In this document: positions 14,234-34,225 of the stretch, piece after piece
How positions within the stretch are numbered: the stretch's first letter is position 1
Layout of the letters: the number at the start of each line of letters is the position of its first letter
Assembly (NCBI GenBank): GCA_048882485.1
Contig: JBHLRP010000022.1
Span: 1-50,852, forward strand
Direction: 5' to 3'
From: Candidatus Thorarchaeota archaeon
GTDB lineage: Archaea > Asgardarchaeota > Thorarchaeia > Thorarchaeales > Thorarchaeaceae
DNA length: 50,852 bases
Notes under the pieces: model-generated
What the model was told of the DNA's origin: nothing
Seen by the model: only the letters and a program-made list of their open reading frames with translations
The model's database searches: none
Made by a program: the position numbers and the translations under genes

Positions 14234-14766
14234 CTGCTTTTTCTGCCTCCCACAGTAGGGATTGCTAATTCCCTTACTGCTACCATCTATCGTGGACAAA
14301 CTATGTGATGTGTTATTGGCCAGCCTTTGATTGGAAACAAGACCTGTGCTTGAATCGTTTTTGTCGGCTATGAACGCTACCGAGAATGGTTTATTGTGAA
14401 ATAGCGGCTCTATTTTACGAACGGGGCAATATGAGAGGATTTACGTTTGCTAAATTGTGGAAACCTGCAACCATGGCAGATCGAAAGGTGCGGTTTATTC
14501 CAGCTTGTTCAAAACACCTTTTCTGGCAATCACATTCAGCGAAAGTATTCAGGCAATACAGTTAACATGCATAAATGTCACAAAAGGGCTTTGATAAAAC
14601 AGCAATAAGGTGCTTTTTGGGAACAAAGGGGCTCTTAAATCGTCTATTTCTCTTTGGGAAGAGTTTTCAACCCTCTGGTTTCTGCGCTTCGCAGATATGA
14701 AGGTTAAGCTGTCAATGAAGGAATCGCTTTGAACCAATTTGCAGTTGGTTTTGTTAGGGTGTTGAT

Positions 14767-15519
14767 GTGATGATCACACAACTTCAAGAGCAGCTGTCAA
14801 TTGCATGTGAGAAGAAAAGCAGAGGCCTAGTCGAGGTGACTTTGCCACTGCAGGTCATGTTCAATAATCGAGACTGGAACATCGTCAAAGCACGGATTAG
14901 ATACACCGGCCCTGAGCGTGATGCTTGGCTCATCTTAATCGTCGGCCTTCGCAGTGATATTCTGTCGACATTTGATCGTTTTGAGGAGGACATTCCAGGC
15001 AGATACTTACCTTGTGATCTTCTTGGTCTTGTACCAGCTATCTCTCTCATGGCATCCTCATATAACAAGGGGCTAGCCGTGAGCGCGATTGCCCGAGATG
15101 ATGTCACCCGCCTGATCCTAGTGTTTGAGGGACAATCGAATAGAAGTGGCGGGTCTCTCAGGACTCTATCTACTTCCATCTGCAACTTCATGAAGAAGTG
15201 GGAGTCTTGGGTTGACGTACTGCTAGGGACGCTGAAGAGGGATCCGGTTATAGGTGATTGGAACACAGACATCCGAGAGTTTCTGGCCGGCGAGTCGGGC
15301 TATATTACGATGCCTTGGCACACTCCTATGTCTTATGCTGATCGCGCAGCATGCTTGGAGAGGATTGTTCTCGCATCAAATGCTCTGATGAGTTCAGTTC
15401 TTGGCAATGGTCAGCTGGTCGACCCGATGGTTGTTGGCTTGAGAGAGTGGCTGAATGAACTGAGAGCACTCCCCGAGGTTGTCAGCGGAATTAAGGTTGG
15501 AGAGGAGGTTCCGATATAA
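14767..15519 (+). CDS. Hypothetical protein, first gene of the recombination/membrane operon
   Basis: 250-aa ORF; TAATG coupling to the next gene, with GAGGAGGT RBS inside its 3' end. Confidence 0.75.
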   Translation: MMITQLQEQLSIACEKKSRGLVEVTLPLQVMFNNRDWNIVKARIRYTGPERDAWLILIVGLRSDILSTFDRFEEDIPGRYLPCDLLGLVPAISLMASSYNKGLAVSAIARDDVTRLILVFEGQSNRSGGSLRTLSTSICNFMKKWESWVDVLLGTLKRDPVIGDWNTDIREFLAGESGYITMPWHTPMSYADRAACLERIVLASNALMSSVLGNGQLVDPMVVGLREWLNELRALPEVVSGIKVGEEVPI

Positions 15520-15986
15520 TGCTTACAGATGAAGTACTGAAGAGGCATGCAATTTCTCCTGTGGACTTGCCCAGTGCGGCTTGGCTTGCGGGAGCTGCTG
15601 CAGGACTGGAGGTCAATAGTCATAGGAGTCCGCAGTGGTTGTGGGAGCCGTTTATTGAGGACTTGTTGGACCTATTGGTTCATCATGGCAATATTGAGCC
15701 AGCCGAACCGGGCACAAGCCCCAAGTTTGGTGATGGTGCAATAGGGTCTGCATATGATGCGTTGGGAGGGTATGTATCTATCAGTGGTGAATTCTGTCCT
15801 GAAGGTCTCTACTTCAAAGTGCCATTGAAGCGACAGGAAGCAGTGGCTAGATTGCTATCACCCAGTCATGCTTACATTTCTAGCGGTGAGATAGTGATTC
15901 CACCCCATGAGATTCCAGCGTTTCTCAGACTAGTCCCGATTCATGGTCCATTATCTGACACAATCGTTGAGGAGGCGTTGGTATGA
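15519..15986 (+). CDS. Hypothetical protein (possible degenerate LAGLIDADG-like fold)
   Basis: 155-aa ORF coupled on both sides (TAATG, ATGA); the family guess is weak. Confidence 0.7.
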   Translation: MLTDEVLKRHAISPVDLPSAAWLAGAAAGLEVNSHRSPQWLWEPFIEDLLDLLVHHGNIEPAEPGTSPKFGDGAIGSAYDALGGYVSISGEFCPEGLYFKVPLKRQEAVARLLSPSHAYISSGEIVIPPHEIPAFLRLVPIHGPLSDTIVEEALV

Positions 15987-17050
15987 CTGAGTTGGAAGGA
16001 GTGACTGGTGTTGGACCTGCTGCGGCAAAGAAGCTGAGGGAGGCATTTGTTACAACAGCTGAGTTGCTGGCAGTTCAGAATCCTGTTGAGCTGCAAAAGA
16101 AAACAAAGCTCGGGGAAGGCACTGTTGAAAAAATCATTCGAAACGCCAGAATCCTCCTGGGCATGCATGGCTTCAAGTCTGGCCTTGAGGTGGAGAAAGA
16201 GATGGAGTCCAAGTCCCGCCTCAAGACGGGCATTGAGAAAATGGACGAAGCACTCTTTGGAGGAATCGAAGTTGGCTCTATCGTTGAGTGTTATGGCCCT
16301 GCAAGAGGTGGGAAGACGCAATTTAGTGCGCATTTGGCAGTCCGTGCACAACTCCCGAGAGACCAAGGGGGCCTTGAAGGCAGAGTATTGTGGTTGGACA
16401 GCGAGTCATCATTCAAGCCCTATACTATCAGAGCCAATGCCATTCGATGGGGTCTTGATCCTGACATTACATTAGGCAATATAGGACGTGCAGAGGTCTT
16501 CCTCTCTGATCAGATTCAGGAGATATTCGAGTCCATTCCCCAACTCTGCAGCGAGCAAGACTATGTCTTGGTTGTCATTGACTCATTCACCGGGCTCTTC
16601 CGTGCGGAGTACACAGGTCTCGAATCCCTGAGAATCCGTCAGCAGGAGATGAATGCGCTTTTAAACCAAATGAGAAGGACCGCGAAGGCCACGGACGCTA
16701 TCTTTGTCTACACGAATCAAGTGATGTCTAAGATAAGCACCTACGGGGGGTATGATAATGCTCCAATAGGTGGCCATATACTCTCTCATGCTAGTGATTA
16801 CAGATTCTACACACGTAGGACAAAGGACGACAAACGAAAGCTACAACTGATAGACAATGCAGGGCTTCCTGAGTTCGATGTAGAGATGGTTGTGGGTTGG
16901 GGTGGAATGTATCCAGACTCAAAGAGCAAGAAGGAGAGCGAACCAGAGATTCTCGACTACTTTGAGAAACAGGGCGTCACTGAAGAGGAGACTGAGATTG
17001 AACTCGAGGAGGCTGAGGCGCCGCAGGCTAAGGCAGGTGAAGCTGGGTGA
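15983..17050 (+). CDS. radA: Full-length RadA/Rad51-like recombinase (divergent paralog)
   Basis: N-terminal HhH domain (GVGPAAAKKLREA), Walker A GPARGGKT, Walker B LVVIDS, FRAEY..G...RQQ, TNQV, PIGGHILSHA, acidic tail. Confidence 0.9.
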   Translation: MTELEGVTGVGPAAAKKLREAFVTTAELLAVQNPVELQKKTKLGEGTVEKIIRNARILLGMHGFKSGLEVEKEMESKSRLKTGIEKMDEALFGGIEVGSIVECYGPARGGKTQFSAHLAVRAQLPRDQGGLEGRVLWLDSESSFKPYTIRANAIRWGLDPDITLGNIGRAEVFLSDQIQEIFESIPQLCSEQDYVLVVIDSFTGLFRAEYTGLESLRIRQQEMNALLNQMRRTAKATDAIFVYTNQVMSKISTYGGYDNAPIGGHILSHASDYRFYTRRTKDDKRKLQLIDNAGLPEFDVEMVVGWGGMYPDSKSKKESEPEILDYFEKQGVTEEETEIELEEAEAPQAKAGEAG

Positions 17051-17490
17051 CCTCGGAGCGAGGAATGTTCAGAGTCTACCAGTGCCCCAGTTGCACCAAC
17101 ATAGGATACACAGCTGTCGAGAATGAGCAAGAGGAGTCAAGATGCAGCCTATGCAGGAGTCTGATTCTTCATGCACCTGGAACAATCTATGCAGTTACGA
17201 TTCAAGAAGCCCAAGCGAGTGTCCGTGAGCTTGTGATAGAATTGCGCCAGAATGCCAAACCCCGAGGGGGAGGGAGAGGCTTGGGCATTAAAAGGCGTGT
17301 CTACTATATCGTTGAAGCGCTAGTTGACCTCAACAGAGGGCGACCAGTTTCGATTGAAGATGTCATGAGAGAATGCAGCGATGCAGGCATCGATATCTCA
17401 CGTGCAATGACGTTCCTTGACTCCCTCGTTTCAGAGGGCGAGGTAATCAAGAACGGTGTGCTAGTCACCATTCCAATGGAGGCGTGGTAG
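17047..17490 (+). CDS. Zinc-ribbon plus winged-helix protein
   Basis: CPSC...CSLC at the N-terminus; C-terminal GRPVSIEDVMREC..AGI.....FLDSLVSEGEVI wHTH pattern; GTGA overlap with radA. Confidence 0.8.
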   Translation: MTSERGMFRVYQCPSCTNIGYTAVENEQEESRCSLCRSLILHAPGTIYAVTIQEAQASVRELVIELRQNAKPRGGGRGLGIKRRVYYIVEALVDLNRGRPVSIEDVMRECSDAGIDISRAMTFLDSLVSEGEVIKNGVLVTIPMEAW

Positions 17491-18117
17491 TTGACGGGTA
17501 TCGAGTCAGAGAGCAACTACGTCTGGGTTCCGCGAGCCCCACCAACTGTCGCAAATAACACAATGATCAATCTCGTGAATCTTCTCATGAGGGAAACGTC
17601 ACATCGAGTGACCGTCCTGGAGAAATGTGTAGGTCCAAATCCTGAGATCTATGTCGTCACTAGAGTCGAATGGAGAACCCCTGACCTCAGTAAACCGGTG
17701 CTGCCGCAACTTCCGAGACTGCTTTCTCTCCTTGAAACATTGAGAGGGACACAGGGAGTCCCTCATGAGATACATCTGGACAGCACTGAGGGAATTGCCG
17801 TCTATCTACCAACAGGAGTGAGAGTATCACAGTTGCCCAGCAAACCAAAGGAGGCAGTGCAATCTCTCACTGACCTAATTGAAAGCTCAGTAAGTCACAT
17901 GTACTCCACTAAGCGAGAGGTTGAAGCTTGGTTCTGGAAGATAGCTCGCCAGAAAGGGTTCAGTCCAGTGATTGTGGAGCGAATGGCAAACAAGGAAATA
18001 GGGTACAAATCGCCTTCATTGATGTGGCAGTTCCATCAGCTTCTGCGGAAGTACTTCTCTCTACGGTTCAGAATCCACACGAGTGAGTCCTGTCTACATC
18101 TGGAGGCTGATTATTGA
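17491..18117 (+). CDS. Hypothetical protein
   Basis: 208-aa ORF whose TTG abuts the previous stop, with GGAGG RBS; TTGA overlap with the next gene. Confidence 0.75.
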   Translation: MTGIESESNYVWVPRAPPTVANNTMINLVNLLMRETSHRVTVLEKCVGPNPEIYVVTRVEWRTPDLSKPVLPQLPRLLSLLETLRGTQGVPHEIHLDSTEGIAVYLPTGVRVSQLPSKPKEAVQSLTDLIESSVSHMYSTKREVEAWFWKIARQKGFSPVIVERMANKEIGYKSPSLMWQFHQLLRKYFSLRFRIHTSESCLHLEADY

Positions 18118-20069
18118 GTACTGCAGTTACTGATCCTCTCGCATGGTTTCCTTATACACCTAGACTGCATCAGGATAAGGCTGTGCGGTTTGCTGCTGAG
18201 GTCTTTTCGTCAAAGACAGTGGGATTGCTGTCTGCCGATTGCGGCGTCGGAAAAACCGTGGCTGTCCTTTCAGGATATCTTGCTGCAAGAGGTAGTGATT
18301 CGAGCTCAAGGTTGGTCGTGCTGACAAGAACTCACAGTCAGTCAAGGGTGTTCGAGATTGAACTTGACGTTCTGAGGGCAATGATGCCTGAACTTACAGC
18401 CACAACGATGGTGTCGAGGATCCATATGTGTCCAATTAGAAGCGAGATTGACTCCGACACCTCTACAGGCTTTATGCGAGCCTGTGCATCGATGATCAAG
18501 ACAGGGCAATGTACGTACTATCACAATGTCTATCGAAAGAACTCCAGCGATGGTCGAAGTGTCATCAGAGATTGGGTTCGAGAACGCGTTGAGGAATTGC
18601 TAAGCACTGGTGTTGTGACACGTGAAAGAGTGGAAGACCTCTGCAGTGCCGAAGGGGTGTGCCCATATGAAGTGATGCGCTGGTGTGCGAGACAGAGCAA
18701 GGTCATTATTGGACCATATAGCTACATGTTCAGGTCAAGGGTACGGGAGGCTCTTCTAACATCATTGGGAATCTCACTCCATGATGCTGACCTACTTGTT
18801 GATGAAGCCCACAACCTGTCAGACCATGCGCTCGACTCGGAAACAGCCAGGCTGAACGGTGAAGACCTCCGATGGCTAAGGGACCACAAATCAGAGATCG
18901 TCAAGGAAACCCGGATAAACTGGATTGGAGAGGCAGTGGACTTTCTTTACGAAACAATGATGCTCAATCTTGATGGGATGAACAGGAGATCAGAGCGTAC
19001 ACTCGCCAAGTGGGATGTGGCTCCGAGATTCATCAAAGAGTCTGATCTGCAGCTCATGCATGAAACTACTAGCCCCAGCATCGGTGATCCTGAGGTGGCT
19101 GTTTCAATGGAGACTCCCCTTGACAGGCTTGTTGAGTTCCTCTTTGTTGCCCAGCTGTCTACCAGAAGTGAAGGGTGGCATGTGACGCTTAACGTGAAAC
19201 GGTCCTGGGATGAAGCATTGACTGCCTCGAAAGCCACGCTAATGATTCGCCCACTAAACGCATCCGGTCTTACTGCACCGGTCCTCAGGGGTGCAAAATC
19301 TGCGCTGTTGATGTCCGGAACTCTGAGACCCCTAGAGCATTATGCAAGGCTATTGGGAGTTGGAGGTGCAATAACAGAGGACTTGGCAAGTCCATATCCG
19401 CGGTCGACTAGGCTAGTGCTCATTGATAGAGAGCTCACAACTAAGTACCAGGCAAGAAGTCCTGATCTCTGGCGTTCACTGGCTGATAGAATAAACACGG
19501 TACTCACAACGGTTCCCGCAAATAAGAGCGCGCTCATTGCATTTCCAAGTTACAAGATTCTTCATGAAGTCTTGAGCTACGGCATTGATTCTGGATATCG
19601 CGGAATACTCATCGAAGAGAGAGGAAACCGCATTGAGACTGTCGCAGAAGCTTTGGAAATTGGCCCTCACGCCATTTTCTGTGTCTTCGGTGGGAAATTC
19701 TCAGAAGGGGTCGATCTAGTGAAAGGCGGCTCTAGTATGATAGACTTGATTATTGGAGTCGGGATTCCCTTCTCCCCTCCTACTAGCTACCAAAGGGCAT
19801 TGCAGGAGTTCTATGATACTCGCTTTGGGGAAGGAGCTGGCTACTATTATGGAGCGTTAGTCCCATCTATTCGTCAGGTTGCCCAAGTTCTTGGTAGACT
19901 AAGGAGGTCACCTGAAGACTGGGGTGTTGTTGTTCTTTTAGACAAGCGCTTTCTCAAGCATGTCCGGGTGTTTGGTGATGATATGGTAGCTGACATCTGG
20001 CCCTTTGGTGATGTTGCTGAACTCAAGGCTGCCATTTCACAGTTCATAGCGTTAAGGGAGGGAAGCTGA
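18114..20069 (+). CDS. XPD/Rad3/DinG-family Fe-S SF2 DNA helicase
   Basis: Q motif FPYTPRLHQ, motif I ADCGVGKT, Ia TRTHSQ, four Fe-S Cys (HMCP, RAC, QCTYY, VCPYE), DEAH, MSGTL, SEGVD, QVLGRLRRS. Confidence 0.93.
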   Translation: MSTAVTDPLAWFPYTPRLHQDKAVRFAAEVFSSKTVGLLSADCGVGKTVAVLSGYLAARGSDSSSRLVVLTRTHSQSRVFEIELDVLRAMMPELTATTMVSRIHMCPIRSEIDSDTSTGFMRACASMIKTGQCTYYHNVYRKNSSDGRSVIRDWVRERVEELLSTGVVTRERVEDLCSAEGVCPYEVMRWCARQSKVIIGPYSYMFRSRVREALLTSLGISLHDADLLVDEAHNLSDHALDSETARLNGEDLRWLRDHKSEIVKETRINWIGEAVDFLYETMMLNLDGMNRRSERTLAKWDVAPRFIKESDLQLMHETTSPSIGDPEVAVSMETPLDRLVEFLFVAQLSTRSEGWHVTLNVKRSWDEALTASKATLMIRPLNASGLTAPVLRGAKSALLMSGTLRPLEHYARLLGVGGAITEDLASPYPRSTRLVLIDRELTTKYQARSPDLWRSLADRINTVLTTVPANKSALIAFPSYKILHEVLSYGIDSGYRGILIEERGNRIETVAEALEIGPHAIFCVFGGKFSEGVDLVKGGSSMIDLIIGVGIPFSPPTSYQRALQEFYDTRFGEGAGYYYGALVPSIRQVAQVLGRLRRSPEDWGVVVLLDKRFLKHVRVFGDDMVADIWPFGDVAELKAAISQFIALREGS

Positions 20070-20672
20070 ATGGCATGGTTCGAGCGATGGGAGATTAGAT
20101 GGATTGGCCTTGGCACATTGATACTTGCTGCGCTTCTGGGGCTTTGGGTGTCCTGGGGCAACATAATGGGGATTTTCCTGTCATCAATCAGCATACTATC
20201 TGCATTACTCTTGGCCCTAAGCTGGAGGAATAGCCAGCTGCCCATTATAATATGGGATGAACAGCGTGGCGTCCTTGCTATTCTATGGTCATTTACACTG
20301 GAGGTCATAGCAGGACGATTGATGACAAGCGTTCCTATTGGCATAGACCTTAGCCATTCAGCATCCAAAGTGCTTCGAGCTCTCCATGCGCGATATGATG
20401 GGAAGAAGAATGGAGAAGTTCGGTTCTTTATCTGCAGACCCACAGGCGATGGCATCACCCGTGCAGGGATGCTTGTTGCGAGAAGAGGCATTCGGTTCAT
20501 AGATGGGATAAAGAAGGCGTCTTCAATCGCAGATGAAATTGTCATTGACGCGGCAGTCCTTGAGAGTTCGATGAGAGCCGCCTATCCTCACATGCCTATT
20601 GATCTAGCAGGGTTGGATGATTTGCTGATGGTGACTTCAGGAGGTGTTGAGCCGTATGCTCAAGTCAGGTGA
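20070..20672 (+). CDS. Hypothetical membrane protein (N-terminal TM hairpin plus soluble domain)
   Basis: Two N-terminal hydrophobic helices; ATG abuts the helicase stop codon. Confidence 0.75.
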   Translation: MAWFERWEIRWIGLGTLILAALLGLWVSWGNIMGIFLSSISILSALLLALSWRNSQLPIIIWDEQRGVLAILWSFTLEVIAGRLMTSVPIGIDLSHSASKVLRALHARYDGKKNGEVRFFICRPTGDGITRAGMLVARRGIRFIDGIKKASSIADEIVIDAAVLESSMRAAYPHMPIDLAGLDDLLMVTSGGVEPYAQVR

Positions 20673-20958
20673 TAGGATAGCTATCGAGCTTCCATTTGGC
20701 GTGACACACGAAGCAGTGATGCATTCGCTTGAGATAGGCCATGGCTATAATTGGCTGGTGCTGACAAAAAGCCCGACGCTCGTTGCTCATGGATCATCAG
20801 ATCTCGGAAACATGCCAGAGATTCTTCTCGTTGGAGAGCATTTGCTCCTCGTGTCGGAATCAGACTTCGTATACGCAGAACGGTTGCAGCGTGTGCTTGA
20901 GATGCTGCGACGCCAGATAAAATCCATTTCAACAGCGGGAGGGACTTCGGTTGGGTAA
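20656..20958 (+). CDS. Small hypothetical protein
   Basis: ATG 20656 follows GGAGGTG RBS; overlaps both neighbours. Confidence 0.7.
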   Translation: MLKSGDRIAIELPFGVTHEAVMHSLEIGHGYNWLVLTKSPTLVAHGSSDLGNMPEILLVGEHLLLVSESDFVYAERLQRVLEMLRRQIKSISTAGGTSVG

Positions 20959-23308
20959 GCGTCTAATTCTCGGTACCGAGCCCGAAGTTGATCCACTAAA
21001 GGAGATCTCTCAACCCAGCATGACTGTGAGTGGTGGGATTGATCTTCAATGGGATGACCGCAGAGTGAAACCATCCCACGGTCGTGATGCAATCACGGCA
21101 ATCACCGTAGCAGTCATTCTCGCGGCACTGCCATGGAGTCTTGCTATGGTTTCCCTCGGAAGTTTCCTTGTTACGATACTAGTCCCCAAACTGAGGACCT
21201 CACAAGAGATTCGCTCCCTAGAAGAATCAGAATGGATTCGTGTTCCTGAGAGCGATACATCCTTTGCAGTGAATGAAGAACACAATGCCGTTCAGTGCAA
21301 AACGGCATCCGGCAATCGCAACGTGATAGGATTGGAGCTGCCATTGGCTGGTCCTCTATTAGTCGGAAATATGAGTGCACTCGTTAGAGCCATCGATAGC
21401 TCAAAGGGATTCTGTCTATCAGTGATAGCAAGAGCCGAAGAATCCTCCTCCATCGTGGAAGAAGAGCGTCTTTCTTCTCGATTGGATGGTTACTTGAACT
21501 ATCTATCAAGCGGTGGATTGGATGCCTATATGACCAGGCGCGGAGGCCTTTGGTCCGTCCGGGTTTCGATTATGGGGCACTCGCAGGATATCAATCAGGT
21601 TCAAAGATTCGAATCATCGATTAAGGCAGCTGTTCCGGATGGAAACTGGTCTAAAATGACGCCCAAATCTTTAGCTTCGAATATGCGGGCGATGAACATG
21701 GCGTTTCGGCTTCCATCATTCTATGCCGCCGGATCCGAACTCTCAGAGTGGTTAATACAGATTCCTAGTGAGCTTGCATCTGAGATTGGATCGAATGTTC
21801 CAGGTGAGTTCCTTGCACCCATAAAGCCCAGAGCAGGAGATTATTACATAGGCCGCGTGATAAATCCAGAAACCCTTCAGCCCGGACCTGCTGCTGGTCT
21901 ATCACACGAGGATATTCGATCCGGACTATTAGTTTGCGGAGGGACCATGGAGGAGCGAAGGCATACGATCACTCTGATTATGAGACAGCTTCTGTCACAT
22001 GGAAAGCGGGTCATTATTGTGAGTAGTGAACCTGATGCCAAGAATTTCGCATCTCTTTCTGAAGGTGCAGTATCATTTGAGCTTGGCAAGGATCTGGTAC
22101 TGAATCCTATGGACGCAGAAGGACTTCCAAGACATATCTATGTGTCCAAATTGATGACTGCTCTAGAGGTAATTGCGGGGACTGACCTTCGCGGTGCAAC
22201 TGACCTTGAACTTGCGATCAATCGTGCCATTGCATTAGGCAACACAACTGTGGCTGACGTTCAACTGACCCAGACACCAGATGTCATGGATACATATTCA
22301 GAGGCAGCAGAACAGAACGAACGAAAGCCATCTGATAGAAGTGTGTCAGGTTATGAAGCAATAAGGTCTCTACACCAAGGAACTGCGGCACGTTCCTTCT
22401 ATGGTTCTCAGACAATCGCTATGCGCGATCTGGCGCAGGCTAGCCTGGGCGTGTTGATTTTATCCCAAGGATATTTGCCAATGGAGAAATTCGCGTTCGA
22501 TCTTGTTTGCATCAAGCTCTCAGGACTCCAACAGGACCAAGATCTCGTTATCATACTCGAGAATGCAGAGAATATGAGAATTCGAAACCGGCGATATATG
22601 AAGAGGGACTCATGGAGTGAGATGATGCTTCGAGATCTGTTGCAAAGAGGTCCCACAATTGTCACGCTGGATCATCCAGTAGACATGTCCCCCGGTGCAA
22701 TTGGCAAATTGAACTCATGCATCACTCATCGACTTCGCGAGAGTCCGGATATTAAGACAGCCGTGGAATTGCTCGGCATCAGTGTCGTTTCGTCAGGCAT
22801 GCATAGTAAAGCCCGTCAATCATCCAGAGAAACATCATACCTGAGAGTAATGCCGGACGGAGTAGTCCTGTTGGTCCGAAACCAGGGCGAAACATGCATG
22901 CCTGTTGAGTTGGATGAAGCGGCCCCTCTTACTGGGCTTCACCCCGAGGAGATGGAGAGACGCATTTCTGATCTCATTCCTCAGGAGTTTCCCACTGAAG
23001 GAATGGCTTTTGGCGATTCACTGATTGATAGAGTCGCTGGAGGACAGAGAAATACAGCCATCAAGATGCTTCGACTGCTTGAGAGGTATGAACCACTGAC
23101 AGAGGAAGCAATGAGGAAATTCCTCCTTTCAGGAGATGGGAATGAGGATCCTGACATCAGTGGAGTACTTGCCAGGCTGGAGAAATCGGGCATGATACTT
23201 AGGGGTCATGAGGTCCATGGAGCGGTTTCGTATACAAACTACCGAATCACCATGAAGGGCAGCATGGCTCTTCATCAAGTTGCACAGAGGGATGAAGCAG
23301 AAAGATGA
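20951..23308 (+). CDS. Membrane-anchored HerA/VirB4/CedB-like protein with degenerate ATPase motifs and C-terminal winged helix
   Basis: N-terminal hydrophobic segment. HerA-like layout: IGRV...LSHEDIRSGLLVCGGTMEERR (Walker A position), LVLNPM, LVIILENAE (Walker B position), TLDHPVDM...LNSCITHRL...D, LRVMPDGVVLL. The C-terminus is wHTH-like (LARLEKSGMI...YRITMKG). Confidence 0.7.
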   Translation: MGKRLILGTEPEVDPLKEISQPSMTVSGGIDLQWDDRRVKPSHGRDAITAITVAVILAALPWSLAMVSLGSFLVTILVPKLRTSQEIRSLEESEWIRVPESDTSFAVNEEHNAVQCKTASGNRNVIGLELPLAGPLLVGNMSALVRAIDSSKGFCLSVIARAEESSSIVEEERLSSRLDGYLNYLSSGGLDAYMTRRGGLWSVRVSIMGHSQDINQVQRFESSIKAAVPDGNWSKMTPKSLASNMRAMNMAFRLPSFYAAGSELSEWLIQIPSELASEIGSNVPGEFLAPIKPRAGDYYIGRVINPETLQPGPAAGLSHEDIRSGLLVCGGTMEERRHTITLIMRQLLSHGKRVIIVSSEPDAKNFASLSEGAVSFELGKDLVLNPMDAEGLPRHIYVSKLMTALEVIAGTDLRGATDLELAINRAIALGNTTVADVQLTQTPDVMDTYSEAAEQNERKPSDRSVSGYEAIRSLHQGTAARSFYGSQTIAMRDLAQASLGVLILSQGYLPMEKFAFDLVCIKLSGLQQDQDLVIILENAENMRIRNRRYMKRDSWSEMMLRDLLQRGPTIVTLDHPVDMSPGAIGKLNSCITHRLRESPDIKTAVELLGISVVSSGMHSKARQSSRETSYLRVMPDGVVLLVRNQGETCMPVELDEAAPLTGLHPEEMERRISDLIPQEFPTEGMAFGDSLIDRVAGGQRNTAIKMLRLLERYEPLTEEAMRKFLLSGDGNEDPDISGVLARLEKSGMILRGHEVHGAVSYTNYRITMKGSMALHQVAQRDEAER

Positions 23309-25512
23309 CGGTTGTAGCTGATGTTCAGGAACAGGTGCATAGGCTTCTCCATCAGCTGGGTATTAAACCGAGAGGGATCCAGAAAACTTCGATTGAACGG
23401 GGCCTTCTGGATGGCGCAAGCATTTTGGTCTGCAGTCCAACTGGCTCTGGCAAGACATTGGTAGGTGAGATGGCTCTCCTTAGAGCAGCACTGACTGGAA
23501 AGAAGGGAATCTATCTAGTCCCTCTGAAGGCTCTCGCCGTGCAGGTGTCTGGAATTCTGATAGATAGGTATGAGCCTCTGGGCTTACGAATTGGTGTGAG
23601 TACAGGGGACTTTTCGAATGATGGTGAGAGTCTTTCGGACTATGATGTCATTGTGACAACATACGAGAAGGCGGATTCTTTGCTAAGACGAAAGACAGCC
23701 TGGCTCAATTCTATTGGCTCTCTAGTCATAGATGAGATTCAGACAATTTCTGATTCTGGAAGGGGTGCCCGTCTTGAATCCATTATAATCAGGTTTAAGC
23801 GAATGGTTGACGGCTTTCAGTTGATTGGGCTTTCAGCAACGGTTGGCTCACCAGATGAGCTGGCTGAGTGGCTTGGCTGTACTCTTGTTGAATCAGAAGA
23901 TCGTCCTGTGCCCTTGGTCTATCGTGTTATTCCTTCAAAACACAGGGAGCGAGTTCTTCGCCAACTGGTTATGACAACAGTGCAAGGCGATGGCCAGGCA
24001 ATTGTCTTTCATCGGACGAGACGCGAAGCTGAATCACAGGCTATACGTCTTTCAGGGGATGTTGGACGGCATTTCACTAGAATTGAAAAGGAAGATCTCG
24101 ACACAGAGCTTGAGTCAGTTGAGAATTGGAATGTCACTATACCGTCCGAACTCAGAACTCTTCTTCATGATGGCACAGCTTTTCATCATGCGGGTCTGGG
24201 AAATCGGGCTCGGCGGCTTGTTGAGGATTTATTTCTCCGGGGCAAAGTTCGAGTGATCTGCGCCACTACAACACTGGCGGCAGGGATGGACCTCCCCGCG
24301 AGGACAGTTGTTCTTACTAATGTGCGGTCTCCGGGAAATCACCGAGAAATGCTTCCTGCTAACTCCATTCATCAAATGCTAGGTCGAGCTGGTCGGCCTG
24401 GCTATGATACGACCGGGTTCGGGATTATTCTAGCTGGAAGCTCCGGAGAAGCTAAAGATGTTGAAAAGAGATACTTTCTTTCGTCATTGGATAATGAGTC
24501 GTCGACAAAAATCCTCTTTCCAAAATATGATCGTGTGATTAGCAAACTCGGCGAGTCAGCAACACTGACTGAGCAACTGCTCGTTGCACTTGATGCTTTG
24601 AATGAAGCAACCTTGGAAGACATTGCAGACGGTTTTCTGGGCGATTCCTACCTAGTGTTCACTGGAATAAGAGATACAAACTCTCCCATGCGAGTTATTC
24701 AGTTGGGTGATATAAGTGCGGAATCTGCAATCGAGAAGCATGCCTTATCAGACACTGTGCGTCCAGCTCGTCAAGGGCTCCTGGGGAGCATTAGCCTTAG
24801 GGAAACAAATGACAGTGTTATTGGTGGCATCGTAGCAGCATGGGAGGAAGGACACTATACCTGTAGGTATTCGGCCCGTCTTTCTGCTGATGGTGTTGTG
24901 GAGGGTCCGCAGTGCTCATGCTCTAGACCTATTGATAGGAATGGAGTTCTATGTTCTCACTTGGTTGCCCTGGGGCTGTATGCAGCAAGAGAGCTAGGCA
25001 GCCTTGCAGACTATGTAATTCCAGTCGCGCTGAGCGAGCTAAGTCCAAGTGAACTTCTCGTCAGGCTGGGCCTTATCGAGGGTGGAATAGAAGGAAAGAT
25101 GAAGCCTACACGATTGGGGCGGATTGTAAACCGGCTTTATCTCAGCATTCCAACAATTCGTGAGCTACTGGCAGTACTTCCAAAAATCGAGGAGAGCACA
25201 ACACTGCTATGGCTCTTGAAGCATCTGGTTTCAATCGAATCGGGGACTTCACTTGAGGATTCTTTCGAACATCTTATCGCTGCTGCAGCCACAACAGACA
25301 TTCCTCTCGAGGAGTTGGCCCGGAGTTCAGGATTTCATTTGGGTGATGCTTATGGACTACTGGAAGCCGCTCATTGGTTGCTTTACGCAATAGTTGCTGT
25401 GGCAGAGGTGGGGGGTTTGAAACAGCCAATGGCTGTTTCGCAGAGGTTGATGGAGGGACTAGAAACAAGACTTGCAGGAAGCAGGAAACAAGATTTTGGA
25501 GGCGCAAAATGA
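23305..25512 (+). CDS. Hel308/Ski2-like SF2 helicase with inserted SWIM zinc finger
   Basis: PRGIQ, SPTGSGKT, PLKALA, TYEKADS, IDEIQ, LSAT, RPVPL, FHHAGL, TTTLAAGMDLPA, QMLGRAGRPG; CSC-x10-CSH at 24913-24960. Confidence 0.92.
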   Translation: MTVVADVQEQVHRLLHQLGIKPRGIQKTSIERGLLDGASILVCSPTGSGKTLVGEMALLRAALTGKKGIYLVPLKALAVQVSGILIDRYEPLGLRIGVSTGDFSNDGESLSDYDVIVTTYEKADSLLRRKTAWLNSIGSLVIDEIQTISDSGRGARLESIIIRFKRMVDGFQLIGLSATVGSPDELAEWLGCTLVESEDRPVPLVYRVIPSKHRERVLRQLVMTTVQGDGQAIVFHRTRREAESQAIRLSGDVGRHFTRIEKEDLDTELESVENWNVTIPSELRTLLHDGTAFHHAGLGNRARRLVEDLFLRGKVRVICATTTLAAGMDLPARTVVLTNVRSPGNHREMLPANSIHQMLGRAGRPGYDTTGFGIILAGSSGEAKDVEKRYFLSSLDNESSTKILFPKYDRVISKLGESATLTEQLLVALDALNEATLEDIADGFLGDSYLVFTGIRDTNSPMRVIQLGDISAESAIEKHALSDTVRPARQGLLGSISLRETNDSVIGGIVAAWEEGHYTCRYSARLSADGVVEGPQCSCSRPIDRNGVLCSHLVALGLYAARELGSLADYVIPVALSELSPSELLVRLGLIEGGIEGKMKPTRLGRIVNRLYLSIPTIRELLAVLPKIEESTTLLWLLKHLVSIESGTSLEDSFEHLIAAAATTDIPLEELARSSGFHLGDAYGLLEAAHWLLYAIVAVAEVGGLKQPMAVSQRLMEGLETRLAGSRKQDFGGAK

Positions 25513-25513
25513 A

Positions 25514-27124
25514 ATGGCTATATCAAGTCGCGAAGGTCCACGTTCCGATGTGGGTGTTGGGGATGAAACTGAGGAGCCAAGTGGCGATCTTATTAGTGCT
25601 CTGAGAGCTTCGGGCCATTCTACTTGTGAATATCCAAACGGGCTAGTTAGTGCTGTTCGTTTGGAATCTATCCCTGGAACACGAGGTGTCCATGTGGAAG
25701 TTGTTCATGTTCTGGACTTGAGGACTGCTCGCTTCGGCAAAAGCGGGCTGGCTATGAGAGCCGCCCTCTTGGAGAGCGTCAATCGGGAGTTCGAAACTGT
25801 CTTACATGATGTTGGATTGGGAGATTATCTTGAACGAAGCGAGCTGAAGACTCCTCTTAATACTGTGTCACTACATATGCTACGAGGAAGCAAAGGCAGG
25901 AAGGCTTCATTGATTCATCCGACCAGAACAGTCTATGTTGTGACTAGGAATGTGAAGCCTACCATGGATCTGTCTTGGCTAACAGATTCAGGAAGACTGG
26001 TGACCATTGAGGAATTTGCTCTTGCGCGAAGAAGTGATGCGCGATCATTCTTGCCTGAAATCAAACATGCAGTGAGTCAGAAGAAGTGGTCTTCCTTGGA
26101 GCGTAGCATAAAGAGAGGATGGCTTGGAGTATTGGCTTTGGCTGCGTGTCTAATTGCAGTTGGTTCTACAGTCATTACCCAGCTTTCAATATCTGGCTCA
26201 ACTCTCCCATCAGTACTTACAGTGGTAGTGTCACTACTGACAGGTCTCTGGCTGCTTTCTAGTTCTACCAGCAATTTGAAGGAATTTGAGAATTCGGTAC
26301 GAGAAGAAGATGCGGTTCTCTCAACCCTTGGAGATTCGGCAAGAATTCAGCAATCCATAGAGTCCAACGAGGATAATCTTCGCCTACTAGGCGACATCAG
26401 CTTTGTTGTATCACCCCTTATGGCAAGTCTCGCAAACACCATCGAAGCTGGCTCTCTTCAAGAATCTATAGAAACCGCTTGTACAATACTGGATGAGTGT
26501 GTGCGGATGGCTCCCCTCAGGATTCAGGAAAAGAATTCCAAGGGAGCTGGAGATGAAGGTCTAGCACGATTTCTTGGCCTATTCGATGCTCTTGGAGTTC
26601 AAGTGGAAAAGGAATCACTTGCACTATCATACGTTGCGCTCACAGCTCACATCACGTCGCCTCTCAGTTTCGAGGATATGATACAGCATGTGGGTAGTCT
26701 GAGCTATGCCCTGTATAATGCTGGAGTTCTTCGACCTGACATAAAGGACATGGTTGATGACAAGGTCAACAATCGAGCAATGAAGAGGACGATTGACGCC
26801 ATTGATAAATCATTAGCTGAACCTGGCGAGCTCCATGCAGAACTACCATCAAGAACAGCAACCACCGAAAGACCAGAAGAAGACGATTCATCAAACGAGG
26901 AGGAGCTCGACCCGAATCTCCTCGATGCTATGTTGCACTCAACACTGAAAACTCAAGTTAATGAAATCCCAATAATAGCGGCTGAAGCAATAGATGAAAC
27001 CACACCAGAGGAAGAGATTCCCACTGGGGCAGATATTGTTGCTGCGAGCAATGCAGGTAAGGAGCCATCAAAGCTTGTTCAGGCTTCCCTATTCGACTTT
27101 GAGGAGGGAAGCTCTTCTGGTTAG
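25514..27124 (+). CDS. Hypothetical membrane protein (central 2-TM hairpin, acidic disordered tail, C-terminal PIP-box-like motif)
   Basis: ATG 25514 follows GGAGG; two hydrophobic helices mid-protein; ends ...VQASLFDFEEGSSSG. Confidence 0.75.
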   Translation: MAISSREGPRSDVGVGDETEEPSGDLISALRASGHSTCEYPNGLVSAVRLESIPGTRGVHVEVVHVLDLRTARFGKSGLAMRAALLESVNREFETVLHDVGLGDYLERSELKTPLNTVSLHMLRGSKGRKASLIHPTRTVYVVTRNVKPTMDLSWLTDSGRLVTIEEFALARRSDARSFLPEIKHAVSQKKWSSLERSIKRGWLGVLALAACLIAVGSTVITQLSISGSTLPSVLTVVVSLLTGLWLLSSSTSNLKEFENSVREEDAVLSTLGDSARIQQSIESNEDNLRLLGDISFVVSPLMASLANTIEAGSLQESIETACTILDECVRMAPLRIQEKNSKGAGDEGLARFLGLFDALGVQVEKESLALSYVALTAHITSPLSFEDMIQHVGSLSYALYNAGVLRPDIKDMVDDKVNNRAMKRTIDAIDKSLAEPGELHAELPSRTATTERPEEDDSSNEEELDPNLLDAMLHSTLKTQVNEIPIIAAEAIDETTPEEEIPTGADIVAASNAGKEPSKLVQASLFDFEEGSSSG

Positions 27125-27803
27125 CGAATACAGCCTTCGAACATCATTGAAGCTCGGAGGTATTATCCATTTCATAGGACCTGCAGGATCCGGCAAGACG
27201 TTGCTAGCGGCGACTATCGCGGCAGATGCATCTCGGACATCTCACGTGGAATGGATAAATGCTGACTCAAAGAAACGGTTCATACCTCATCTGAAGGCAA
27301 CAGTCAAGCATCTCAGGGGGGTGGAGAGTAACGTGTCTGTTATGATGACGAAAGGTCACAAACAGACATTGGATGCTTTGTTAAAATTGAGAACTACGAT
27401 AACACCAGACACGTCTCTAATTGTCATTGACCCTATTACAAGGGTGCTTGACATGTCAAGAAATGATCCCATCCTTTGGGGGCGATTACTAATAGAAGAG
27501 GCACTGCCCACACTAGGAGCATTATCTTGGGAAAGAGGCATAGATATCATTGTTGTAAGTGAGATGAGATTTCTTCATGAGATTGGCAATCATCCAGTGT
27601 TTTCTAATGAAATAGCAAAATGGGCAGATACTACTATCAAGGTTTGCAGGGATATTTCCAGCAAATCGTCATCTGTTTCAATTGTGGAGAATGGTGATGA
27701 TCGCAAAATCGCACAGCTCCGAGTCCTACAAAACGGAGCTTGCCATCTGTCTCTTTCACATCACCGAGGAGTGGTCACGAATTGCTTGGAAGAGGAATTC
27801 TGA
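26994..27803 (+). CDS. RadB/Rad51-paralog-like RecA-fold ATPase without N-terminal HhH domain (true start probably near 27117)
   Basis: Walker A GPAGSGKT, WINADS..F, Walker B LIVIDPIT, IIVVSEMR, KWADTTIKV; GAGGAGG at 27101 suggests a later start. Confidence 0.85.
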   Translation: MKPHQRKRFPLGQILLLRAMQVRSHQSLFRLPYSTLRREALLVSEYSLRTSLKLGGIIHFIGPAGSGKTLLAATIAADASRTSHVEWINADSKKRFIPHLKATVKHLRGVESNVSVMMTKGHKQTLDALLKLRTTITPDTSLIVIDPITRVLDMSRNDPILWGRLLIEEALPTLGALSWERGIDIIVVSEMRFLHEIGNHPVFSNEIAKWADTTIKVCRDISSKSSSVSIVENGDDRKIAQLRVLQNGACHLSLSHHRGVVTNCLEEEF

Positions 27804-28729
27804 AGATTATCGGTTTGGCGATAGCAGGAGCAATGGCTTTAGCGGGTGGTGCCCAGTTGCTCTCATCAGTGGCACTTGTGGTTATTTCCTTCAGAAGCGG
27901 GAATATCATCCCCCTGATCATTGCCATAGGCACAACAGCGGCATTGATTCATCTGAAACGACTATTTACCAAACATGCACTATCTGCAATTCTAGGGATA
28001 CTTGCTTATGCAGCCTCGGGATATCTTGCCGTGGTCGCATTCGTTGGACTGTTGCCTTATGGGATGATTTCATCCCTATTGGGTGCCGCACTAACGATTA
28101 TTGCATGTTCGGTGATGTATGACCCAAGCAACCTGAAAGAATGGATGGCAACATTGTCCCCCGACTCGTCAATATCGTGGCTGAGCAGAGACCCAGGAAC
28201 ACCTGAGTTTTCGATAGGCAAGGAAGTTTCACACCATATTGCACTACTCCCGTCTGAAAGCCGAGAGAAGGTCATCATGCTGATGAGAGACCGACCACTT
28301 CTACCAATTTCACTGACTCACTTCAATGAATGCGACGCGCTCTTCATTGACCTAAAGTCTGAGAGGATAAATTTGAACCAGATCAGAGATGCTCTCTTTA
28401 GAGCAAACGTGGCAATCAAGAATGATGCATCACCACTCTTGCGGGAGGCAATTCTCAAGGTCCCTATTATTGATGAAAAACATGGCCTTTCGATGGCAGA
28501 ATACTGTTTAGCTACTGATCAGGAAACTGTTAATCAGCTAATACGGAATCCCCCTTCACGCATGTTTGTTTTCCCTAGTAGAACCGGTCCCAGAGTCATC
28601 TATCCTGAATCGGCAGCACCAGGTCTAATATCTCAAAGAGTTCCTGAAAGCGAACTTGTCAATGCACTATTGCTTCACAGATATACCACTCTTAAGGAGG
28701 CCAATGACACCTTTGCGAATGCCACTTGA
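27782..28729 (+). CDS. Hypothetical membrane protein (about 4 N-terminal TM helices plus soluble domain)
   Basis: TTG 27782 follows GAGGAG; the first ~110 aa are hydrophobic. Confidence 0.75.
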   Translation: MLGRGILKIIGLAIAGAMALAGGAQLLSSVALVVISFRSGNIIPLIIAIGTTAALIHLKRLFTKHALSAILGILAYAASGYLAVVAFVGLLPYGMISSLLGAALTIIACSVMYDPSNLKEWMATLSPDSSISWLSRDPGTPEFSIGKEVSHHIALLPSESREKVIMLMRDRPLLPISLTHFNECDALFIDLKSERINLNQIRDALFRANVAIKNDASPLLREAILKVPIIDEKHGLSMAEYCLATDQETVNQLIRNPPSRMFVFPSRTGPRVIYPESAAPGLISQRVPESELVNALLLHRYTTLKEANDTFANAT

Positions 28730-29429
28730 TTCACTAAATGTCAATTCACGATCCGAAATCTCGCTTGCCCCGAAGCAACTTGATGACTTGCTAGGAAACA
28801 TTCTTGCACGCGAACAACTAAGCCTCTTTCATGGCCCTGAGCGATCTCCTCTTACGTCTCTCGCCCACGCCATATCAATTGCCGCAGCTGAACTAGGTGA
28901 GGGACATGCGGTCTATATTGATTCAGGGTCAAATTACAGTCCCACTTTAGCTCGAGCAATGTGCAATTCAAAGAGAAGGGTGTCAAAGATACTCAGCCGC
29001 GTTATTGTCGGGAATGTATTGAGTCTTTCAGACTTGGAGAATCTCAGTAAAAGCATTCCAAACTTGGGCCCTGTATCTATAATATTGCTCGACAGCCTGA
29101 CGGGAGTTCTGAATCTTTCTGGAGCTCCAGGAAGTGCAGGGAGGCAAAGAGAGCTCTTTCATTGTCTTGAGGTCTTGAGGGAACTAGTAAATGAGATTGG
29201 AACTCATCTTTTGATGACAGACCATTCTTCAAGAAGCTGGAATTCAGATCAATCTATACCCATTGGTGGTAATGTTCTTGCTCATGCTGTTGATTCTGTA
29301 GTGAGAGTTGATCGACTGGACGTGGGGAAGAATCTGATTCGTATATTGGTCGAGCGCAGCACACTAGGTTCTGAATCGCAAGCATTGATTCTAGTGGAAG
29401 GAAAGAAAGGTCTGCGTACCTTCAGATAG
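28704..29429 (+). CDS. RecA/Rad51-paralog-like protein with degenerate Walker A
   Basis: ATG 28704 follows GGAGG. QLDDLLG, GPERSPLT in place of GxxxxGKT, VYIDSG, ILLDSLT, RQREL, PIGGNVLAHAVD. Confidence 0.85.
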   Translation: MTPLRMPLDSLNVNSRSEISLAPKQLDDLLGNILAREQLSLFHGPERSPLTSLAHAISIAAAELGEGHAVYIDSGSNYSPTLARAMCNSKRRVSKILSRVIVGNVLSLSDLENLSKSIPNLGPVSIILLDSLTGVLNLSGAPGSAGRQRELFHCLEVLRELVNEIGTHLLMTDHSSRSWNSDQSIPIGGNVLAHAVDSVVRVDRLDVGKNLIRILVERSTLGSESQALILVEGKKGLRTFR

Positions 29430-29440
29430 CGGTGATTCCT

Positions 29441-30433
29441 ATGGGTGTGACTGGTTGGAGCAATCTGGTCCCTTGGGCATGGGCCGATGTGAATGAGGTT
29501 ACACCAGGCAATATCGCAATAGACATGCCCAATTATTTGACGCGTCGTGTGAGTGTCATTCCTTCATCAAAACGAGATAGCGGCAGAATTCCCCTTCATC
29601 ACGCTGGAATGACTCTAAGCTTGATAAGAATGTGTCTGAAGAACGCATTACTGCCAGTCCTCATTTTTGATGGTCCACCAGAGCGTATGAAGAGGTCTCC
29701 AAATCCTGAACTCATTCTCACTGCTCAATCCTTCTACAGGCAATTCAAAGAGACTCGGGATCCGTACGATGAGGAGATAGCCAGTCCATTGCGGAAGAGT
29801 CCGTCTCTCAGAATGTACTTCGCTATCGAGCACACACGCGAACTCGCACGCGTTCTAGGTGTGCCTGCAATCTCAGCGCCATCGGAAGCTGAGATGTTTT
29901 CTGCTGTGCTATGCAGAGACAGGCTAGTTAATACAGTCGTTTCAAATGACTCAGATGCGCTTCTATTTGGGAGTCCACATGTAACGAAGCAATTGCAGCT
30001 GTCAAAAAGGCTGATACACAGAGCCACGCTTGCTGATTTGGAAAGCACGACTGGACTTGATCTTGAACAACTAAGAGACCTCGCTGTAGTATGTGGATGC
30101 GATTTTCACAGGCAAGGAGTGAAAGGTATCGGTCCAAGAAAGGGGATGATTCTCCTTCAGCGACATGGAGGGTTGGAAGCATTACTCAAGGCACGAGGGT
30201 ATGGTCCAATTGAACGTAGGGAATTTATGGATGGCAGACAGGCATTCGATGAGGCTAGCTACATTTCTACAAATGGGCTTTTCTTCGATCTAAATCCGCC
30301 ACTAGTCTCGAAGCTTACGGGGATGCTGACTATGTTCATGACGGAGAACCGTGCAGAAGAGATTACGCGTCAGTTTGTTGGATTATGGAGGAAATTTGGC
30401 ACACATCAAGAAACTCTAGAGCAATGGCTCTGA
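29441..30433 (+). CDS. FEN1/XPG-family structure-specific 5' nuclease (divergent) with C-terminal PIP box
   Basis: MGV N-terminus, IAID, IFDG, APSEAE, SNDSDALLFG, GCDF, GVKGIGPRKG (H2TH), terminal QETLEQWL. Confidence 0.9.
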   Translation: MGVTGWSNLVPWAWADVNEVTPGNIAIDMPNYLTRRVSVIPSSKRDSGRIPLHHAGMTLSLIRMCLKNALLPVLIFDGPPERMKRSPNPELILTAQSFYRQFKETRDPYDEEIASPLRKSPSLRMYFAIEHTRELARVLGVPAISAPSEAEMFSAVLCRDRLVNTVVSNDSDALLFGSPHVTKQLQLSKRLIHRATLADLESTTGLDLEQLRDLAVVCGCDFHRQGVKGIGPRKGMILLQRHGGLEALLKARGYGPIERREFMDGRQAFDEASYISTNGLFFDLNPPLVSKLTGMLTMFMTENRAEEITRQFVGLWRKFGTHQETLEQWL

Positions 30434-34040: not shown

Positions 34041-34225
34041 ACATAGAACAAACCATGAAGAGATATCCAAGTCCCGGGTCGGATCCTTCCCATATCCCTG
34101 CTTCAGTAGAAAAAGACCCACCTATTCCAATGGTCCCCGTGACCTTTTTCCCAAAAGGTTCGGCCCCGGGACACCTCTTCATTTCGAGGCATTATTGGGA
34201 GAGGAGCAGAGAGGTTGAGGCATAG
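34037..34225 (+). CDS. Small proline-rich hypothetical protein
   Basis: 62 aa; ATGA overlap upstream and overlap with the start of the giant gene, filling the gap exactly. Confidence 0.6.
   Translation: MNIEQTMKRYPSPGSDPSHIPASVEKDPPIPMVPVTFFPKGSAPGHLFISRHYWERSREVEA

Follow-up and report, generated by a model that had tools for sequence, protein, structure and literature searches.

A predicted SWIM-type module nested in the winged-helix domain of a Hel308-like helicase from an Asgard archaeon

Archaeal Hel308/Hjm helicases (PDB 2p6r, 2va8, 2zj2) are Ski2-like superfamily 2 (SF2) motors in which the helicase core is joined to a winged-helix (WH) domain, a ratchet domain with a conserved Trp and a C-terminal helix-hairpin-helix (HhH) domain, domain 5, that carries the RAR motif. 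In characterised Hel308 proteins, helicase and ATPase activity go up when domain 5 is truncated or mutated; domain 5 is also an annealing module, and its deletion has no significant effect on translocation through nanopores (2026 review, PMC13623763). HELQ and the helicase domain of POLQ belong to the same helicase family and keep domain 5; HELQ functions together with RAD51 and its paralogues, and binds these paralogues (PMC13623763). In eukaryotes, Hel308/HELQ helicases and the SWIM proteins Shu2/SWS1 (ZSWIM7) are separate regulators of Rad51 recombination. Shu2/SWS1 are small standalone proteins with a CxC-xn-CxH SWIM signature, and Shu2, through its SWIM domain, contacts the RecA-fold Rad51 paralogue Shu1 (PMC5727457). 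SWIM domains also occur on SF2 DNA translocases in bacteria, namely on the SNF2 (SNF2_assoc) ATPases, where they lie N-terminal to a Snf2-type motor, and Mtr4/Ski2 have an accessory domain, the arch (KOW), within the WH domain of a Ski2-like helicase (PMC10946056). Here we describe a gene, P0001, from a Candidatus Thorarchaeota archaeon (assembly GCA_048882485.1, contig JBHLRP010000022.1; the whole stretch of 50,852 nucleotides that was analysed is referred to as the window), the product of which is a Hel308-type motor whose WH domain is interrupted by a module that is predicted to be SWIM-type. Both the motor and the domain are known; what is new is their nested architecture and the phylum-wide family of paralogues that has it. 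The literature searched, which included a 2024 survey of Ski2-like helicases in archaea and the 2026 review of Hel308/HELQ, has no description of a Hel308-like helicase with a SWIM insert. Two elements that are on separate proteins in eukaryotes are thus combined in one polypeptide in the closest archaeal relatives of eukaryotes.

The coordinates of P0001 and of its domains are given in Table 1. The ATG of the gene overlaps the stop codon of the upstream gene (ATGA), and the gene on its 3' side starts one base past the P0001 TGA, behind a GGAGG. Contigs assembled from the runs of a second study cover P0001 from end to end without indels, which shows that the insert is no assembly artefact. Pfam places a DEAD domain on residues 25-181 (E 2e-28) and a Helicase_C domain on residues 290-366, and in a phmmer search of PDB sequences residues 28-394 matched Hel308 2p6r with an E of 1.8e-77. 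The best NCBIfam and PDB matches of the protein are Hel308/Hjm; the Hel308/Hjm equivalog model NF040935 scores 291 bits against a cut-off of 1200 and covers only residues 6-397. An AlphaFold2 (AF2) model of the full protein, built from a 26-sequence alignment, had a predicted local distance difference test score (pLDDT) of 88 and a predicted template modelling score (pTM) of 0.83, with pLDDT 83-95 across the blocks of the insert. The top PDB fold matches of this model were again Hel308/Hjm (template modelling score (TM) 0.65-0.68, E 5e-35), followed by the POLQ helicase domain and then Brr2; the Foldseek E values for HELQ and POLQ were 1e-25 to 5e-27. An earlier note on this DNA had called the protein a Hel308-like helicase with intact SF2 motifs, and both parts of that description hold: GSGKT (residues 47-51), DEIQ (143-146), SAT (177-179) and QMLGRAGRPG (357-366) are invariant in 17 orthologues, and the structure prediction suggested in that note finds Hel308/Hjm first among PDB folds. 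P0001 is a Hel308-type, Ski2-like SF2 motor with intact core, WH and ratchet domains. Because the same genome also encodes a canonical Hel308 with domain 5 (P0123, 750 amino acids, with PF21280, HHH_5 and the motif GIGRIRGR), P0001 is a paralogue. Compared with Hel308/Hjm, with which it shares the overall fold, P0001 differs in having the SWIM module in the WH domain, in lacking the HhH domain 5 and its RAR motif, in the DEIQ form of motif II and in coexisting with a Hel308 orthologue; compared with HELQ and POLQ, which have no SWIM insert, it shows the reverse combination of features. Note that Q146 of motif II (window 23731-23742) is invariant in the Thorarchaeota clade and in order-level relatives, and that other SWIM-insert helicases, degenerate members excepted, have DEIH or DEVH at this site, like the canonical P0123.

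Several alignments indicate where the WH domain is split. A profile made from residues 412-630 of P0001 matched Hjm 406-448 with its positions 2-44 and Hel308 446-504 with its positions 154-211, and in a weaker phmmer segment residues 598-617 aligned with residues 473-492 of Archaeoglobus Hel308. When P0001 was aligned with the canonical Hel308 of its own genome, residues ~454-578 stood opposite only ~13 residues of P0123. Moreover, when a model of the segment was compared with solved structures by VIA-align, the matches were to the Hel308 WH domain (Z 9.9) and to MarR/PadR WH proteins (Z 8-9). Since these WH matches span model residues 1 to ~210 yet pair only 65-100 of them, the WH domain of P0001 is interrupted by a module of ~110-125 residues, in agreement with the insert of about 120 residues that the earlier note had placed there.

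The inserted module is well supported as SWIM-type, judging from its sequence and its predicted fold. The signature CSC-x10-CSH had been assigned to C537, C539, C550 and H552, and it lies exactly there, with the ligand codons at 24913 (Cys537), 24919 (Cys539), 24952 (Cys550) and 24958-24960 (His552). The same four residues are invariant in 26 aligned relatives, comprising 17 Thorarchaeota orthologues (54-83% identical to P0001) as well as 8 distant relatives and an in-genome paralogue (22-40% identical). In an insert-only alignment of 20 diverse relatives, with identities down to ~20%, these were the sole invariant columns of the insert, L549, L553 and L556 being near-invariant, and all further family members that were fetched have a CxC...CxH motif at the equivalent place. 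The invariance of the ligands in the 26 relatives, together with the retention of the motif in all further members, shows that CSC-x10-CSH is not a chance occurrence; a single Zn ion, bound by all four ligands, would stabilise the module. With regard to profile matches, SWIM was the Pfam family matched by the most relatives (10 of 26). The Pfam SWIM model PF04434, which has a gathering cut-off of 19.6 bits, was exceeded at the homologous site in a relative from another Asgard family (locus L055, also sampled as L018; 27.7 and 32.9 bits, respectively), in L025 (21.8 bits), in L028 (21.3 bits) and in the orthologues of a second paralogue described below (20.4-24.3 bits), and most of the above-cut-off PF04434 matches in 41 related genomes fall within homologous helicase open reading frames (ORFs). 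Thus the search with this model, which had been put forward as a check, gave a divided answer: homologues pass at the same site with 20-33 bits, whereas P0001 itself stays below the cut-off. In a fold search of the ESM Atlas, in which a predicted model was compared with predicted models, residues 469-566 aligned over 90-92 amino acids (root-mean-square deviation 3.2-3.7) with clusters of which 100% and 32% are annotated as PF04434, and the matches also included SNF2 ATPases. A language-model search with the insert gave a best cluster in which 26% of members are annotated as SWIM (score 0.75), which we regard as a lead only. The conservation of the ligands, the passing of PF04434 by relatives and the match to SWIM clusters, the last of these between predicted models, support the earlier note's proposal of a SWIM-type Zn module in the WH domain.

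We also compared the C-terminal end of P0001 with that of Hel308. Residues 669-723 align with residues 577-631 of Archaeoglobus Hel308 by phmmer, W691 aligns with the Trp of the Hel308 'AEWL' motif (~599 in Archaeoglobus), the AF2 model has long helices over residues 679-731, and PF21280 matches residues 666-708 with 13.6 bits, which is below its cut-off. The segment LETRL (719-723) aligns with residues 627-631 of Archaeoglobus Hel308, where the ratchet domain ends, and P0001 stops 12 residues later. No RAR/HhH motif was found in P0001, a phmmer comparison with domain 5 of P0123 gave no match, and the alignment with P0123 concurs. The absence of a C-terminal HhH/RAR domain, as read by the earlier note, is therefore correct. 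By analogy with Hel308, P0001 should lack the brake that senses single-stranded DNA, and the annealing function, of domain 5.

Turning to the distribution of the architecture, only 18 relatives of the C-terminal half of P0001 were present among 1.84 billion cluster representatives, and those with a named source were all Asgard (Asgardarchaeia, Hermod-, Jord- and Helarchaeales). The split-WH profile matches 81 of 151 sampled Asgard genomes, ~78 of these 81 matches including the insert, and within the window's own family it matches all 26 genomes, usually in two or three copies. SWIM-insert helicases are thus an Asgard-wide family that is found in about half of the sampled genomes. The family takes two forms. 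In the first, to which P0001 belongs, ~170-185 residues follow the motif and domain 5 is absent; in the second, ~230-250 residues follow the motif and domain 5 is kept, as in L055, in L061 and in the ~830-870-amino-acid proteins of L049 and L057. Because some SWIM-insert relatives keep domain 5, the insert was gained and domain 5 was lost in independent events. In a tree of the motor core, canonical Hel308 proteins formed one clade (100/100) and the P0001 clade another (99/97); the deep branches were not resolved, and the tree speaks neither for nor against a single origin of the insert. (A first tree, which kept the insert columns, was discounted, and the trees were made without eukaryotic sequences.)

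Members of the second form include the product of L055:8187-10526 (+), from a genome of another Asgard family (G031), which is a five-domain Hel308 with a SWIM insert, PF21280, HHH_5 and the motif GLGRVRAR. A Hel308 without the insert was not seen in the same genome at the threshold used, and its Hel308 orthologue may therefore itself carry the SWIM module. The genome of the window in turn encodes a third Hel308-like paralogue (P0122, 738 amino acids; G000:C23:36973-38874 (-), locus L004:1222-3438), which has orthologues in nine other genomes of the same family. P0122 carries a SWIM insert of the form CSC-x14-CKH, which scores 16 bits (20-24 bits in its orthologues). Its Walker A motif (motif I) and motif II are degenerate, with neither GKT nor DExH, and from its sequence P0122 looks like a conserved pseudo-helicase. 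Moreover, standalone Asgard proteins of 224-403 amino acids match the whole insert module alone with E values of 1e-8 to 3e-12, which shows the module to be an autonomous domain; these proteins have His in place of the first Cys (HxC...CxH).

The existence of both forms bears on whether the truncation, as opposed to the insert, is the key trait of P0001. If loss of an auto-inhibitory domain 5 had de-repressed the enzyme, then P0001 would, by analogy with the domain 5 mutants of Hel308 mentioned above, be a constitutively hyperactive helicase to which the SWIM module is an add-on. P0001 does lack domain 5, and the raised helicase and ATPase activities of those mutants are in keeping with this idea; the unaltered nanopore translocation of Hel308 lacking domain 5, and the annealing function assigned to that domain, are not. 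Furthermore, since SWIM-bearing relatives with domain 5 exist, the defining feature of the family is the insert rather than the truncation. We therefore regard de-repression as a tentative and rather unlikely explanation of what sets P0001 apart. Natural variants with and without domain 5 provide a test set for the brake/annealing model of Hel308.

Relatives that combine the insert with domain 5 bear equally on what the module might contact. Both DNA and proteins are predicted binding partners of SWIM domains (PMC5727457), and the module could be a nucleic-acid-binding element, situated on the WH domain near the junction of duplex and single-stranded DNA, that senses branched or duplex DNA in place of domain 5. 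Bacterial SNF2 DNA translocases, through their N-terminal SWIM regions, are among the closest fold matches of the insert, and the module of distant family members has a mildly basic net charge (+1 to +5). In most Thorarchaeota-clade members, however, the insert is net acidic (-2 to -5), and apart from the ligands only the hydrophobic L549, L553 and L556 are near-invariant, with no conserved basic patch in the alignment. In addition, the retention of domain 5 by insert-bearing relatives argues that the insert is not a replacement for domain 5. A DNA-sensing role for the module thus appears unlikely, and the slightly acidic insert of the Thorarchaeota clade weakly favours a protein partner over DNA.

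P0001 is the tenth gene of a co-oriented block of 15 genes (window 14767-30433 (+)). In order, this operon encodes two unknown proteins, a full-length RadA, two further unknown proteins, an XPD-like helicase, two small proteins, a 785-amino-acid protein, P0001, a protein with two hydrophobic segments, RadA paralogue A, a protein with four hydrophobic segments, RadA paralogue B and a FEN1/XPG-like nuclease, the RadA paralogues being encoded 1.6 and 3.2 kb downstream of P0001. The order is identical, with the same flanks, in 16 Thorarchaeota-family genomes of several genera. In distant Asgard classes, too, the SWIM helicase repeatedly has genes for RadA, RadA paralogues, XPD-like and FEN1-like proteins nearby, and homologues of RadA paralogue A adjoin it. 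The neighbour most often linked to the SWIM helicase across the phylum is the gene for the 785-amino-acid protein, the family profile of which matches HerA/DUF87 chains (E 6e-6 to 1.5e-4) and PadR WH proteins, and the ESM Atlas features of which score 0.91-0.93 to DUF87/HerA/TraG clusters. Members of this HerA-like family lie no more than ~10 kb from the SWIM helicase across the whole of the window's own family, and the same holds for at least 24 genomes from other families, among them genomes whose SWIM helicase keeps domain 5. Note that the family consensus lacks GK[TS] at the P-loop position (CGGxxxER), and that HerA-like homologues in some other Asgard lineages are ~1250-1300 amino acids long. 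Four operon proteins have hydrophobic segments (those at 20070, 20951, 25472/25514 and 27740).

The HerA-like ATPases and membrane proteins of the operon, together with PADLOC matches of the HamB and PDC-M23B models to the motor core of P0001 (E 1e-37), raise the idea that the operon is a defence or DNA-uptake/mobile-element system, with a Hachiman-like HamB, a HerA-type ATPase and membrane proteins, as opposed to one for chromosomal recombination or repair. The PADLOC matches, however, cover only the shared SF2 core, and no other operon protein that was scanned matched a defence model convincingly; in particular, the model for the Hachiman protein HamA (DUF1837) gave no match among nine neighbouring operon proteins. 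The operon also contains a full-length RadA gene and a FEN1-like gene. Finally, the presence of the operon in 26 of 26 genomes of the window's family and the conserved order and flanks in 16 genomes argue for vertical, core-genome behaviour, unlike that of defence islands. We consider a defence or uptake function highly improbable.

The reading that we favour, with a probability of roughly 60%, is that P0001 is an ATP-dependent Hel308-type translocase/helicase that carries a Zn-stabilised SWIM docking platform, is aimed at recombination or repair and is without the functions of domain 5. P0001 would act as a 3'-5' DNA translocase on recombination or repair intermediates. By analogy with Mtr4/Ski2, in which the insert is an arch/KOW fold in an RNA-type helicase and serves as a model for an adaptor platform, the SWIM module of this DNA-type helicase would project from the WH domain as an accessory platform. 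The module would then dock the helicase to a partner encoded in the operon, either a RadA paralogue, in the manner of Shu2/SWS1 with Rad51 paralogues, or the HerA-like protein, and docking would aim the motor at recombination or repair intermediates. P0001 would in this way be a dedicated unwinding or branch-remodelling subunit, with the canonical Hel308 keeping the general role. The linkage of the P0001 gene to genes for RadA and RadA paralogues recalls the partnership of HELQ with RAD51 and its paralogues. P0001 is set apart by the nesting of its module within a Ski2-type motor's WH domain, both from the standalone Shu2/SWS1 proteins, to which no sequence or fold match of the module was obtained, and from the SNF2_assoc ATPases, which count among the insert's nearest fold matches.

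Several observations weigh against this reading. PF04434 scores 11.1-12.1 bits on residues 529-556 of P0001, short of its gathering cut-off. No solved SWIM structure was matched in structure searches, which used a model of the WH domain plus insert. The VIA-align lists were filled by WH proteins, and a Foldseek search of the PDB with this model had no match at E <= 0.001, with ZSWIM8 at rank 30 (E 0.48). Likewise, a profile of the insert alone did not find Shu2 or ZSWIM8 among PDB sequences, its sole match being a chance-level one to the Zn motif of ribosomal protein L31. The helicases of L049, L051, L053 and L055 sit away from RadA genes, and recombination genes are absent within ~8 kb of the genes that encode the module as a standalone protein, which therefore give no independent support for a link between SWIM and RadA paralogues. 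Furthermore, gene neighbourhood shows a shared pathway rather than contact. (A complex prediction for the WH domain plus SWIM module with both RadA paralogues gave a score of 0.00; it was made without controls and is not evidence either way.)

A more far-reaching version of the docking proposal, which we consider very unlikely as it stands, is that the SWIM-Hel308 paralogue works with the pair of RadA paralogues and the HerA-like protein as a single recombination-mediator machine of Asgard archaea, with SWIM docking the helicase onto RecA-fold paralogues. Such a machine would be the archaeal equivalent, or a precursor, of the eukaryotic SWS1-SWSAP1 (Shu) and HELQ-RAD51-paralogue modules, united in one polypeptide. 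SWIM-Hel308 in any case offers a tractable system in which to ask what SWIM binds and how helicases reach recombination mediators.

Table 1 Positions of P0001, its domains and related features (window positions unless a locus is named)
Feature	Position	Strand	Basis or remark
SWIM-insert Hel308-like helicase, whole gene P0001	23305..25512	+	single ORF, 735 amino acids
SF2 motor core, RecA1 and RecA2, residues 1-411, motifs I-VI intact	23305..24537	+	Pfam, phmmer, motif alignment
WH domain, N-terminal part, residues ~412-455	24538..24669	+	profile match to Hjm 406-448
Inserted module (predicted SWIM-type), residues ~456-578: helices, four-stranded sheet 495-537, Zn knuckle, helix 551-564	24670..25038	+	AF2 model
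SWIM signature CSC-x10-CSH: C537, C539, C550, H552	24913..24960	+	sequence
WH domain, C-terminal part, residues ~579-630, includes PTRLGRIVNRLYL	25039..25194	+	matches to Hel308
Ratchet domain 4, residues ~631-725	25195..25479	+	alignment to Hel308, AF2 helices
Disordered short tail with TGA stop; HhH domain 5 absent	25480..25512	+	pLDDT < 50 for 728-735
HerA/DUF87-like 785-amino-acid protein, one N-terminal hydrophobic segment, C-terminal winged helix-turn-helix	20951..23308	+	upstream, translationally coupled
Protein with two hydrophobic segments	25514..27124	+	GGAGG upstream of start; kept in Thorarchaeota-family operon
RadA paralogue A, RecA core only, GSGKT kept	27075..27803	+	Pfam AAA_25 and NCBIfam RadB, both weak; orthologue alignment
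RadA paralogue B, Rad51 fold, P-loop Lys absent	28704..29429	+	Pfam Rad51 E 1.4e-10; start by upstream GGAGG
Standalone module proteins	L090:8161-8838, L091:7892-8566, L092:7184-8377, L093:8049-9260, L094:8314-9522		insert-module match

Beyond the operon, the window contains two further genes that we noted. The operon is flanked by a gene for a GH3-family (acyl-acid amido synthetase-like) protein with three GH3 Pfam domains (window 12677-14299 (-)), as it is in the relative L017. An ORF of 2606 amino acids (window 34215-42035 (+)), the L017 orthologue of which has faint Ig-like, MG2 and CarboxypepD_reg matches, probably encodes a surface protein.

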